A stretch of DNA of 50,589 nt from Minisyncoccota bacterium (GCA_021734995.1 JAIPHX010000001.1:1-50589), one strand, 5' to 3'; positions 48,113 to 50,589 are shown, numbered from the stretch's first letter. Translations and numbers: made by a program. The notes: generated by a model not told the origin, from the letters alone.

Positions 48113-48174
48113 TTACTCGGGCTAAAAGAAATTAAAAACACCAAGCAAAAGCTTGGCATTTTTAATTTAGTCCG
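48113..48174. repeat. 62-bp hairpin repeat, copy A (copy B at 50242-50303)
   Basis: TTACTCGGGCTAAAAGAAATTAAAAACACCAAGCA(A/G)AAGCTTGGCATTTTTAATTTAGTCCG; 61/62 identical. Confidence 0.95.
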
Positions 48175-48307
48175 GTAGTCATAACATTATTATAACTATA
48201 TTATCAGATAAGCAATATATGGAAGGGTTATATAATAAGTTGATGTTTATTAAGGCGTTGCAAAAAGAAGAATTTGGACTCTCACAGGGTCAGATTTAGC
48301 TTATTGA

Positions 48308-50050
48308 TTAATAAACTTCCTGCTGATAACACTTTTCACAATAGACGATTTCTTGTCTTTCGGGCGCATAACTTGTTTCAAATTCATTAATGCATCCTTC
48401 TTTCATACATTTACGATGCCAGAGCTTCATAGGATTACGTTGAGCTAGTCTTTCATAGTGTCTGCAGTTGGGGCAAAGTCGAGGGATAGGTAAATTCATC
48501 CTTTTATAAAACTGAAGTTCTTCTGGAATGATTTTGAAGGCCTCTGTACAAGAATTATCACAGCTTAATTTTTGATGATTCTCTTTATTATGATGATCAC
48601 ATTCTATTACTTTTCCTATAATACTATCATCTACATCTTTAATATCATCAGGAATATTTTCTGTATTAATATCTATTTGATAATTTCTATTTTCTTTTTC
48701 AAACCAAATATATCCTTGTTTTATGGCTTCTTCTTTATTTAAAGGAAAATATTCTTGAGCGATACTATCATTATATGGGAATGCACTAAATTCAAGCGGA
48801 AAAAATTCACCATATTTATATATTCTTCCTTTACTATCTACGTAAGGCATATCATTCATATGTTTAATTATTTGGGGAACTAATTCTTCGTATTGTTCTT
48901 TTTTATATTGTTTATTTAAAATACAATATTGTTTATTTTTTAAGCCAGAGCAACCAAAAATATGTGAACATCCTATGCAATATAATGAATATTCACAATT
49001 TTGTGCTCCTTTATAAGAACGGCAACAGAATTTTATATCATAACAATTAGAACCAATAGACGAACATTCATATGATAATTCAGTATTTGCTCCCCATAAT
49101 GAACAATCATAGCAATCTTTTGCTTTCGGCGTAAAGAATAATTGAATATATTTACTATCTTCTACTTGATTTACATAATAACTTGAGAAGGTATTTTTAG
49201 AATTATTTATATATTCGCCAGAAATGTCTACATTAGAGCGTCCATCATAGAATTTTCTGATACTTTTCTTTATAAAATCTTTCGTATTCTCTTTAATTTC
49301 AGATATAGTTTTGTTTGAACCTAAATTAAAGCTAGAGATTAGTTTTTCATATTCCTCTTTTGAATATTGTTTATTATATATGCAGTATTTTTTACTACGT
49401 AAATTTGTACATCCAAAACAAAAACTACAACCAACTAAGTCTCTGGAAAACCATATATCCATAGAATTTTCACAATGAGAAGAAAAAAATGATCTATAGC
49501 ATTTTGTGAGAGCAAAAGATTGATAGCATAATTCTGATGAATCAATTCTTGTCACATCCATAGAATTTTTAACAATGTTAAGTTCTGCTGAATAACTACA
49601 ATTCTCAGCTGATGTTGTAACAAATACTAAATAACAGTTTTTAAGATCACTTGAACCAGCAGAATAGTCACTATCTATCATGTCCCATCCTGTCTGACTA
49701 GGTAAAGGTACAGTATGGAATAATTTCTTAATTTGACTTAAGAATGATTCATTTAGATTGATATCGATACCATAATCTAGGCCATCTAATTTATCACTCC
49801 ACCATATATCTTGCTCCCAAACTTTTACTTGCGCTTTTGGATGAAAAATTGAAAAAATTATTTTGTTAGTTATGTCACTTTTTCTCTTATATAAAACTCT
49901 ATGGTCACGAAATGCCATACGTCTTATCATTCTACATTCTGGGCAAAACGTCGGAGCAGGAACCTTGATCTTTTCATAAAACGAAAAATCATCTGGCTCA
50001 ATAATGAAGTCTTTTTTGCAGTTTTGGCAGTTTCTAGTTTCGGAATTCAT
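48308..50050 (-). CDS. Cys-rich zinc-ribbon/beta-helix-like protein of a CPR-expanded family
   Basis: CQNC...PTFCPECR..RR, repeated C..CFGC..L..K.YCI.NKQY, YGEFFP and a C-terminal C...C...VYCEKCYQQEVY. Confidence 0.85.
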   Translation of the reverse strand: MNSETRNCQNCKKDFIIEPDDFSFYEKIKVPAPTFCPECRMIRRMAFRDHRVLYKRKSDITNKIIFSIFHPKAQVKVWEQDIWWSDKLDGLDYGIDINLNESFLSQIKKLFHTVPLPSQTGWDMIDSDYSAGSSDLKNCYLVFVTTSAENCSYSAELNIVKNSMDVTRIDSSELCYQSFALTKCYRSFFSSHCENSMDIWFSRDLVGCSFCFGCTNLRSKKYCIYNKQYSKEEYEKLISSFNLGSNKTISEIKENTKDFIKKSIRKFYDGRSNVDISGEYINNSKNTFSSYYVNQVEDSKYIQLFFTPKAKDCYDCSLWGANTELSYECSSIGSNCYDIKFCCRSYKGAQNCEYSLYCIGCSHIFGCSGLKNKQYCILNKQYKKEQYEELVPQIIKHMNDMPYVDSKGRIYKYGEFFPLEFSAFPYNDSIAQEYFPLNKEEAIKQGYIWFEKENRNYQIDINTENIPDDIKDVDDSIIGKVIECDHHNKENHQKLSCDNSCTEAFKIIPEELQFYKRMNLPIPRLCPNCRHYERLAQRNPMKLWHRKCMKEGCINEFETSYAPERQEIVYCEKCYQQEVY

Positions 50051-50137
50051 ATATTTATTTTACCACAATACTTAAAATCTTATTAATCTATAAAAACTCC
50101 TACATAAACTGTAGAAACTGGAAGGAATGGAAACATT

Positions 50138-50155
50138 GTCCGCCCGGTAGGAATC
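50138..50155 (-). repeat. 18-bp duplicate of the tRNA-Lys 3' end (att-like)
   Basis: GTCCGCCCGGTAGGAATC is identical to 50299-50316. Confidence 0.93.
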
Positions 50156-50241
50156 TCGCCTTACAGGCGCAGGTGCTTTTCCGCTCACTTCGTTCGCATG
50201 GAAAAGCCTTTCGATTCCTACCCGTAAGCAAATAAATTTGC

Positions 50242-50303
50242 TTACTCGGGCTAAAAGAAATTAAAAACACCAAGCAGAAGCTTGGCATTTTTAATTTAGT
50301 CCG
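50242..50303. repeat. 62-bp hairpin repeat, copy B; also the terminator-like trailer of tRNA-Lys
   Basis: Matches 48113-48174; CCAAGC-N4-GCTTGG core flanked by ATTAAAAA/TTTTTAAT. Confidence 0.95.
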
Positions 50304-50372
50304 CCCGGTAGGAATCGAACCTACGACCATCTCCTTAAAAGGGAGCTGCTCTACCGACTGAGCTACGGGCGG
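50300..50372 (-). tRNA. tRNA-Lys(UUU), CCA not encoded
   Basis: CCGCCCG/CGGGCGG acceptor stem, GCTC/GAGC D-stem, anticodon loop CT-TTT-AA, GTAGG-TTCGATT-CCTAC T-arm, discriminator A. Confidence 0.95.
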
Positions 50373-50477
50373 GTAATTGCACAATATGTCAAATATATAG
50401 CAAAATGACTTTAAAATCAAGGCGTAAATATATTTAAAGCAGTTTTAATTTAATTTGCCAAAATTCAAGGGGATGAA

Positions 50478-50588
50478 CTAGCCTTGTTTTTTAAGCCACT
50501 CTATCATCTTTTTGTAAGTAGTAGGACCTGTTTCTCCATCAGCAGTCATTCCTTCGGCTTTTTGGAAGTTTATTACATCTGTTTTTGT
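50478..50588 (-). CDS. 3' end of a peptidoglycan-binding-domain (PG_binding_1) protein, truncated by the window edge
   Basis: Manual translation: TKTDVINFQKAEGMTADGETGPTTYKKMIEWLKKQG* (V..FQ...G...DG..GP.T motif). Confidence 0.8.
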   Translation of the reverse strand, partial: TKTDVINFQKAEGMTADGETGPTTYKKMIEWLKKQG

Positions 50589-50589
50589 G

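Follow-up and report, generated by a model that had tools for sequence, protein, structure and literature searches.

The stretch analysed here, 50,589 nucleotides of Minisyncoccota DNA (GCA_021734995.1, JAIPHX010000001.1:1-50589; hereafter the window, at its full length), contains behind a minus-strand tRNA-Lys(UUU) gene an interval that we identified as one "long-form" copy of a large family of structured modules of about 115 nt, which is found in Patescibacteria of the Nomurabacteria/Paceibacteria kind. The unit runs from a linker, which sometimes holds a terminator hairpin, through a short complement of the tRNA acceptor strand (a'), a hairpin (H), an antisense arm (b') and a core built as a three-way junction, to a copy of host tRNA positions 56/57-74. 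The core is common to the family and the arms are specific to each host tRNA. In design these modules match the rtT repeat of Escherichia coli, and the reading that we tentatively favour is that of an RtT-like RNA module in the tRNA trailer.

The module behind tRNA-Lys

The sequence GTCCGCCCGGTAGGAATC was present exactly twice, at 50138-50155 and 50299-50316, with a start-to-start distance of 161 bp, and 100 dinucleotide shuffles of the window gave a chance expectation of 0.00 matches for this tail repeat (up to 3 mismatches). The two repeats are separated by 143 bp, and the sole open reading frame (ORF) there is a 106-aa TTG frame overlapping the tRNA. Between them lies TTCGATTCCTACC (50210-50222), whose 13 nt are all complementary (100%) to 50307-50319. 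It is also complementary over 10 nt to 50146-50155, and forms a closing helix of 10 bp with the distal tail copy. Such a downstream copy of the 3' end, 18-20 nt long, accompanied 3 of the 35 tRNA genes of the source genome, the other 32 having at most 9 nt. The features of the locus, in the direction of the tRNA, are:

50299..50372, minus: tRNA-Lys(UUU), the host gene (ARAGORN; Rfam tRNA, 71.7 bits)
50299-50316, minus: proximal direct-repeat copy, the last 18 nt of tRNA-Lys, tRNA positions 57-74 (repeat search)
50258..50297, no strand assigned: 18-bp hairpin flanked by A/T, terminator-like on both strands, which separates the tRNA from the module and marks the long form of the family (inverted repeat and consensus match)
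50247..50251, minus: a', GCCCG, complement of the acceptor 3' strand at positions 66/67-70, paired in the minimum free energy (MFE) fold of this copy
50224..50245, minus: hairpin H, 10-bp stem with conserved GCAAA...TTTGC, splitting the tRNA complement between positions 66 and 67
50210..50222, minus: b' arm, Watson-Crick complement of tRNA positions 54-66 (T-loop, 3' strand of the T-stem, C66)
50208-50212, minus: conserved joiner GAAAG flanking P-a, overlapping the GAA end of b'
50175..50207, minus: core helix P-a (GCUUUUCC/GGAAAAGC), its distal part with tandem G.A pairs and a GAA loop
50170-50175, minus: conserved joiner CACCUG flanking P-a, its first base doubling as the last of P-a
50157..50169, minus: core helix P-b (CGCC-UGUAA-GGCG; CGCC-TTACA-GGCG on the plus strand), its loop with a family-invariant GUA
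50138..50155, minus: distal direct-repeat copy, with tRNA-Lys positions 57-74, forming the module's 3' end (repeat search, shuffles, family identity profile)

Read on the plus strand, hairpin H is GTAAGCAAAT-AA-ATTTGCTTAC (50224-50245) and P-a is GCTTTTCC...GGAAAAGC (50175-50207), and GGGC picks up again past H at 50248-50251; in this copy a' can pair with the acceptor strand over 4-5 bp. The fold stood out from shuffled sequence on both strands (z of -6.9 and -6.8), and 0 of 200 shuffles equalled the real stretch. The initial annotation had described the interval as a GC-rich foldback element with a direct and an inverted copy of the tRNA 3' end, and everything it said of the sequence holds, including the exact tail repeat at 161 bp, the antisense copy at 50210-50222, the four hairpins and the resumption of GGGC; "GC-rich" is correct only relative to the 33% of the window and the genome, with G+C at 52% in 50138-50250 and 45% over the whole 161 bp. 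A promoter-like site was seen on the minus strand at 50086-50057, between the module and the next ORF, and this call, like the terminator-like ones, is a consensus match only. As a separate observation on the tRNA itself, C1 is paired with G72 (CCGCCCG.../...CGGGCGG, 50366-50372) in tRNA-Lys and in several relatives (L010, L012-L015), the usual G1 being kept in other relatives.

Family census and position behind tRNA genes

By BLAST, three further copies of the part of about 115 nt were found in the same 0.79-Mb genome, two as a tandem pair running off the end of contig C2 (C2:67895-68142) and one at the end of contig C1 (C1:102162-102282), right behind tRNA-Leu(UAA). Their cores match that of the window copy and their arms differ; in each copy, the tail and its complement are those of the copy's own tRNA. 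The element-free tRNAs of this genome (Arg, Gly, Pro, Tyr and others) had no trace of hairpin H. The host tRNA of the C2 pair (tail ...CCCTCTGGGCGCA) is absent from the assembly, and one DNA run (X2) contains a loose end where the tail of this tRNA joins a T-arm.

A seed alignment (A1) of 19 copies from this genome and its relatives, in which RNAalifold found 33 pairs, 24 of them with compensatory changes, was used to build a covariance model (R1) for searches of the genus and the order. R1 matched 108 of 151 genomes in the genus, with up to 14 copies each (the unpublished genomes G084, G147 and G155 are counted, all positive; 105 of 148 without them), and 106 of 151 genomes and 97 of 131 genera in the order, with up to 21 copies each. 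Similar elements at other tRNAs and in other genomes, on which the initial annotation had staked its proposal, are therefore present. A scan of contigs from one genome per species with an exact pattern gave at least 123 stretches; among the 80 matches listed, the lineage names were Patescibacteria in 69 (Paceibacterota, Nomurabacteria, Saccharibacteria etc.), "bacterium" only in 7 and other phyla in 4.

We analysed 100 loci, comprising 17 of 20 BLAST-hit regions (L034-L036 excluded), 3 regions from the source genome and the 80 top-ranked R1 regions from the genus. They contained 110 R1 hits, 108 of full length, and as the best-scoring third of the matches they are biased to well-formed copies. 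A tRNA or tmRNA gene on the same strand lay just upstream of 92 of the 108 copies, with 24 tRNA species and tmRNA as hosts; of the remaining 16, 12 had less than 130 nt of upstream sequence (a contig end or a tandem partner) and 4 had no tRNA within 350 nt or more. Relative to the end of the tRNA the module started at -8 to +7 nt in 67 of the 92, at +9 to +24 in 10 and at +42 to +47 in 14, the last with a terminator-like hairpin in the gap as in the window (hosts Lys, Tyr, Ser, Asn, Ala and tmRNA), and one was the second unit of a tandem pair. The filling is patchy, in that the same tRNA carried the element in some congeners and was empty in others. Arrays stop at varying points, either directly behind position 74-75, past a repeated terminator or within hairpin H, and ends of 1.3 units were seen at other loci too; true tandems of the unit occur elsewhere in the genome and the family, and the window locus has one unit and a partial one 2 kb away.

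Several loci share the layout around other cores. In the source genome, tRNA-Ser(UGA) (C5:74342-74427) has a 19-nt tail copy 162 nt downstream around a different conserved core, a repeat of the GTCCGAG...GGGGTCGCG... type. In other families of the order (L013, L014, L035) the GTCCGAG-type repeat was also found behind tRNA-Lys, singly or several in a row. The tail-copy design therefore occurs with several unrelated cores. Behind tRNA-Lys of L014 (G039), L034 (G041) and L036 (G060), in other families of the order, the same arrangement of terminator, a', hairpin, complement of positions 54-66, core and tail copy was seen with longer and different cores, and in L036 the tail copy fits a T-stem variant other than that of the adjacent tRNA.

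Arms matched to the host tRNA

An exact direct repeat of at least 10 nt was present in 82 of the 92 copies behind a tRNA or tmRNA, and one of at least 18 nt in 64. Its boundaries are sharp: over 81 pairs the proximal and distal copies had an identity of 0.78-0.99 at positions 56-74, as against 0.00-0.06 at positions 54-55 and roughly 0.4-0.5 past position 74. The antisense arm follows the T-loop variants of its host (TTCGATT with AATCGAA; TTCGAAT with ATTCGAA or GTTCGAA; TTCAATT with AATTGAA), and the inverted segment does co-vary with the adjacent tRNA as had been proposed. Where the host T-stem has a G.U pair (13 informative cases), the arm was the complement of the 3' strand in 6 and the tRNA's own 5' strand in 1, the rest being off register in the parse. 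The arm is therefore a complement of the tail rather than the decayed 5' half of a tRNA copy, and we rejected the alternative of a degenerate tRNA copy with an insert, since at G.U pairs of the tRNA b' complements the 3' strand in Watson-Crick fashion.

Covariation, strand and maintenance of the structure

In an alignment of 110 rows, 95.4% of the cells were paired, as compared with 76.5% in shuffles, and two-sided changes were present at 29 of 33 pairs, with covariation in every helix; these structure statistics are flattered, as the rows were aligned to the model and come from the best-scoring third of the matches. When the partner was slid by 1-3 columns as a control, pairing was 41-55%. 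Hairpin H (helix 1 of the family model) was paired in 99.3% of the cells with compensatory change at 9 of 9 pairs, P-b (helix 7) in 98.7% with 5 of 5 pairs compensatory, and the tandem-G.A hairpin in P-a was present in 58 of 108 copies, with GAA, AAA or GUA loops. G.U pairs outnumbered A.C pairs by 211 to 27 (155 to 27 without one conserved U.G), and therefore the folded strand is the tRNA-sense strand. This is compatible with RNA, but a folded single-stranded DNA of the same strand might also account for it.

Within groups of copies at a single host the core identity was 0.70-0.86, internal stems were paired at 94-99%, and 7-17 of 25 pairs were compensatory; in some of these groups the downstream flanks were linked by blastn (Arg-tcg, 34 of 55 pairs; Pro-tgg, 21 of 36). 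The structure is thus maintained in place, beyond mere inheritance from a recent insertion. Remnants of integrase arm sites were rejected as an explanation on the stem covariation and the wobble asymmetry. For a hammerhead-like RNA or a bulge-helix-bulge intron, the strand order of the junction and the motifs misfit on inspection by eye, and neither was found by Rfam; in the Rfam scan of 49900-50589 (E up to 10) the tRNA alone passed, and the next best matches, at 11-28 bits, were under their cut-offs.

Comparison with E. coli rtT and other known systems

The closest known analogue, which the initial annotation did not name, is the rtT repeat of E. coli. Reading the K-12 sequence (NC_000913) directly, we found units behind tyrV at 178-bp spacing, in tandem and in tRNA orientation, each ending in AATCCTTCCCCCACCACCA, which is the tRNA-Tyr tail from position 58 (A58, T-loop). 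The arms GGGGAAGGAT/ATCCTTCCCC are 10-nt exact complements 91 nt apart, over 22 nt the GGGGAAGGAT segment also complements the real T-arm at 86%, a CGAGCG..AGCGAG tandem-GA hairpin and GCGAAGC lie in the unit, and the annotated RttR end is the CCA of the duplicated tail. A second tandem-GA hairpin (CGAGCG-AA-AGCGAG) lies in the tyrT-tyrV spacer outside the annotated rttR (L117 1630-1653, minus strand). The E. coli RtT RNA is described with a covarying helix that frames the tandem GA (PMC8250186), its function is still called unknown (bioRxiv 10.1101/2024.07.17.603846), and a preprint gives raised "mobilome" coverage of the tyrT-rttR region under stress.

The likeness to rtT (RtT, RttR, RF00391) covers the position 3' of a tRNA gene on the same strand, the end of the unit in a tRNA 3'-end copy that begins in the T-loop, an internal complement of the tail that closes the unit, and, in the E. 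coli unit, a CGAGC-loop-GCGAG tandem-GA hairpin with GAA-loop hairpins. The two differ in length (178 nt in E. coli and about 115 nt in Patescibacteria), in the small ORF (tpr) inside the E. coli unit, none being evident in the module, in the fold of the unit against shuffles (the E. coli MFE is no better than shuffles, at z -0.86 versus -6.9 for the window copy), and in range, as the Patescibacteria family occupies 24 tRNA species and tmRNA with host-matched arms. Their sequences show no detectable similarity. RtT itself is known essentially at tRNA-Tyr in enterobacteria. The literature covered had RtT in E. coli or enterobacterial contexts only, and no such elements in Patescibacteria or the candidate phyla radiation.

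Three other kinds of system share parts of the design. Williams (2002) reportedly defined a T-loop sublocation class of tyrosine-integrase islands and prophages in tRNA and tmRNA genes; like the modules, these have a direct repeat that begins in the T-loop and stops just beyond the gene's 3' end, an intact tRNA, tmRNA hosts and arrays at one tRNA. Unlike them, the module has a payload of about 95 nt with no integrase or any ORF, and an antisense arm and RNA-like covarying helices that att sites do not need. Integron attC and the attP hairpin of CTX phage are recombination sites made of a folded single strand. In these, as in the module, one specific strand folds imperfect inverted repeats, structure is kept while sequence varies and a duplex resembling the partner site is rebuilt, whereas the arms of the module are tRNA-derived and its centre is a conserved three-way junction; no integron integrase, R/L boxes or Xer/dif context was seen, none having been looked for. 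The small RNA 3'ETS-leuZ of E. coli is cut from a tRNA 3' external transcribed spacer; it resembles the module as a functional RNA cut out of a tRNA trailer by tRNA processing, and differs in having neither a tail copy nor an antisense copy and in forming no repeated family.

Exchange of hosts and enzyme associations

Core similarity was 0.667 within the same genome versus 0.667 between different genomes, and 0.753 for the same host in different genomes; as cores within a genome are no closer than those between genomes, there is no sign of recent bursts of transposition. In the large short-form subfamily (A) core identity was 0.70-0.79 between hosts versus 0.70-0.86 within hosts. Because cores are about as alike between as within hosts, and because tRNAs are filled in only some congeners, hosts must have been exchanged, with both arms matching each time. 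Co-divergence with the tRNA families was rejected, since the core identity of copies at the same amino acid but another anticodon (0.687 versus 0.666 for different amino acids) is raised too little to explain the spread. Conversion by an adjacent repeat and quasipalindrome template switching are known mutational routes, and we speculate that the arms might be rewritten in this way, the direct copy being converted by the tail of the adjacent tRNA and the antisense arm being perfected by template switching.

The enzyme families tested were reverse transcriptase (RT, PF00078) and the IS200-type Y1 transposase (PF01797), and neither had a match in the source genome. In the genus, where related genomes are not independent, the element was present in 65% of RT-positive versus 76% of RT-negative genomes, and in 68% of Y1-positive versus 81% of Y1-negative genomes. 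The RT tally includes the unpublished G084 and the Y1 tally G084, G147 and G155; without these genomes the counts were 42/23/63/20 for RT and 71/35/34/8 for Y1 (both element and family, family only, element only, neither). Within the genus, 109 of 151 genomes had Y1 transposase-like genes, as frames of about 210-250 aa, and a single genome had as many as 14. The module does not behave as a REP/REPIN-type repeat moved by RAYT/Y1, in that a cognate Y1 transposase is absent and the presence of the element does not track Y1. Nor does it behave as a retroelement-derived repeat, for there is no RT in the genome and no CCA bias between the copies: among 70 scored, CCA followed the distal copy only in 9, the proximal copy only in 8, neither in 52 and both in 1.

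Surroundings of the window copy

Two further features lie beyond the module on the same strand:

48308..50050, minus: 580-aa Cys-rich ORF, context rather than part of the module, between the distal tail copy and the partial second unit
48113..48178, minus: partial second unit, with a degenerate tRNA-Lys end (CTACCGG--AC, 4-nt gap), a repeat of the terminator hairpin, then a' and 5 nt from the start of H

The order on the minus strand is tRNA-Lys, terminator hairpin, a', H, b', core, tail copy, promoter-like site, 580-aa ORF, partial second unit and a gene of the metallo-beta-lactamase fold. The terminator hairpin and a' are repeated 2.1 kb away over 59 nt at 98% (48113-48171; BLAST). The 580-aa ORF matched no Pfam family and has 12 paralogs in the genome (contigs C1, C5 and C7) at 33-50% identity, several of them in tandem at 61.5-74.5 kb of C1; among the ORFs next to the module no match to an integrase family was found in Pfam. 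From the order of the repeats, with tRNA-Lys tail copies on both sides, the ORF looks as if it had been inserted into, or captured beside, the spare tRNA tail, and minus the ORF segment the locus would be an ordinary array of 1.3 units. Among 20 sequencing runs listed, two DNA runs contain the locus, and one of them may be its source. In both, the Logan unitigs stop precisely where the 59-nt repeat lies, and the 580-aa ORF has the same depth as its flanks. No joints, indels or alternative forms were found in the contigs of these two DNA runs.

Interpretation and alternative explanations

Under the RtT-like reading, the module would be transcribed as the 3' trailer of the tRNA, at the window locus by read-through of the terminator hairpin, and would act or persist as a folded RNA, as RtT does. 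The spare tail would serve as one strand of the closing helix and would give the RNA a tRNA-type 3' end that is cut by tRNA 3'-end processing, much as RttR appears to be released, while the antisense arm would keep the 5' half of the tRNA for the real tail by preventing competition from the spare one. The direct repeats would allow units to be gained, lost and multiplied by recombination, with tandem and 1.3-unit arrays as the outcome. Several findings weigh against this reading. The Rfam RtT model (gathering cut-off 45 bits) had no hit in 49900-50589 (E up to 10) or in the whole genome, and R1 gave 6 bits (E 0.23) on the E. coli tyrT locus, aligning the tandem-GA hairpin only; because neither covariance model finds the other family, we would call the Patescibacteria modules RtT-like by design and place them outside RF00391. 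In the RNA data, six runs contain 0.07 of the sampled words, and in the one mapped the reads cover the tRNA only. A terminator-like hairpin stands between tRNA and module in the window and in 14 of 92 copies, and the structure of these long forms is kept nevertheless. The pairing of a' is mostly 3-5 bp family-wide, barely above the permuted control, and because of this weakness we dropped the claim of a full acceptor/T-arm minihelix as a family feature. In the distal copy, conservation of the unpaired stretch (positions 67-73) equals that of the paired one, which RNA folding alone leaves unexplained. GNA triloops are very stable in DNA, and the GNA-type triloops of the family (GAA, GUA), with tolerance of G.T, would suit folded single-stranded DNA equally. 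The flattering of the structure statistics by the choice and alignment of copies, given above, also counts here.

The main rival, possible and still on the unlikely side, is a non-autonomous DNA element or recombination site, whose unit would depend on an enzyme encoded elsewhere for its movement or multiplication as DNA. The enzyme might be a tyrosine integrase of the T-loop class, with the 19-nt identity block as its substrate, or it might recognise the sense strand folded as single-stranded DNA, in the manner of attC or CTX attP, in which case the arms would rebuild the duplex of the tRNA-gene target. The repeat bounded sharply at positions 56-74 is what an att identity block would look like, and a direct repeat from the T-loop to the tRNA 3' end does flank an insert, as in T-loop-class integrative elements, but the 143-bp insert holds no integrase gene. 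The patchy distribution, with no trace of H at the element-free tRNAs of the source genome, the tandem and 1.3-unit arrays and copies that break assemblies at contig ends, and the host switching shown by subfamily-A cores as alike between hosts as within them all fit such an element; so do the conserved unpaired positions 67-73, the terminator-bearing long forms that keep their structure, the bracketing of the 580-aa ORF by tRNA-Lys tail copies, as if it had entered the spare tail, and the raised "mobilome" coverage given in the preprint on E. coli tyrT-rttR. However, the module has no coding capacity and no enzyme candidate, RT and Y1 being without positive association, copies in the same genome are no closer than others, as recent bursts would make them, and the contigs of the two DNA runs containing the locus had no alternative joints. 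Moreover, an integrase leaves both the need for the antisense arm and its rewriting unexplained, and DNA that is merely bound would lack stem covariation with wobble asymmetry. A bolder reading, which we judge unlikely, is a "programmable", gene-less mobile element that seeks tRNA ends, with a conserved scaffold (H and core) and sense and antisense arms re-templated from the host tRNA or tmRNA without RT or an IS200-type transposase; it might work as folded RNA or single-stranded DNA, and E. coli rtT would be its stranded relative.

The two alternative folds foreseen by the initial annotation are predicted in silico: in the 243-nt transcript of tRNA and trailer, the MFE fold, at -108.4 kcal/mol, has b' paired to the 3' half of the real tRNA and is about 7 kcal/mol more stable than tRNA and trailer folded separately (-101.3 kcal/mol). 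A precursor RNA switch could rest on this, with the antisense arm alternating between the real tRNA 3' half and the spare copy and so gating tRNA maturation or read-through, and the complement to the real tRNA is indeed longer (13 nt, including TTC 54-56) than that to the spare copy (10 nt). The argument is purely thermodynamic, though, and co-transcriptional folding, tertiary contacts of the tRNA and the intervening terminator favour the normal tRNA fold; no conserved loop resembling a ligand pocket was identified, a promoter-like site lies between the module and the 580-aa ORF, and H and the core would be conserved without reason, so that we consider a switch improbable. The more specific suggestion of control over read-through into the downstream cassettes is unsupported, because the terminator-like hairpin separates tRNA and element and the promoter-like site precedes the next ORF. 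A retro-element origin, in which RT copies the tRNA tail and stops in the T-loop and rolling-circle copying multiplies the units, would account for a tail copy of 17-19 nt bounded in the T-loop (a retroviral primer-binding site has 18 nt) and for arrays of n plus a fraction with a fixed start and variable ends; with no CCA bias between copies, no RT in the source genome and no association in the genus, it is very improbable. Least credible of all is a plain scar, the attL/attR of a decayed island with incidental hairpins. Islands typically leave direct repeats of tRNA 3' ends, and a third, degenerate tail copy lies 2 kb away, but a conserved core at 24 tRNA species in more than 200 genomes, with stems maintained within syntenic host groups, does not fit, and we exclude a scar because all helices covary. 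The initial proposal is thus partly supported: a tRNA-associated mini-element stands, now with host-matched arms, while the mobile element, recombination site and RNA switch that it offered are candidate readings.

Significance

This analysis contributes quantified repeat boundaries, the strand test, the test of complement against copy, the maintenance within hosts, the negative enzyme associations, the order-wide census and the direct reading of E. coli rtT. For practical work, the modules break assemblies at the tRNA genes of small genomes and hide tRNA genes. The RtT problem gains a comparative data set, in the form of a far larger family of like construction, present in about 70% of the genomes of a Patescibacteria order, at 24 tRNA species and tmRNA, with hundreds of natural variants that show which parts are scaffold and which are specified by the host, and that place the limits of the repeat at T-loop position 56/57 and position 74. 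Two questions become testable, namely whether the unit is excised by tRNA-processing enzymes and how a gene-less module gains a new tRNA tail in both orientations. If the programmable element, unlikely as we hold it, were true, the family would be a new class of guide-bearing, gene-less mobile element; and for the genomes that carry these modules, the spare tRNA tails may act as landing sites for other DNA.

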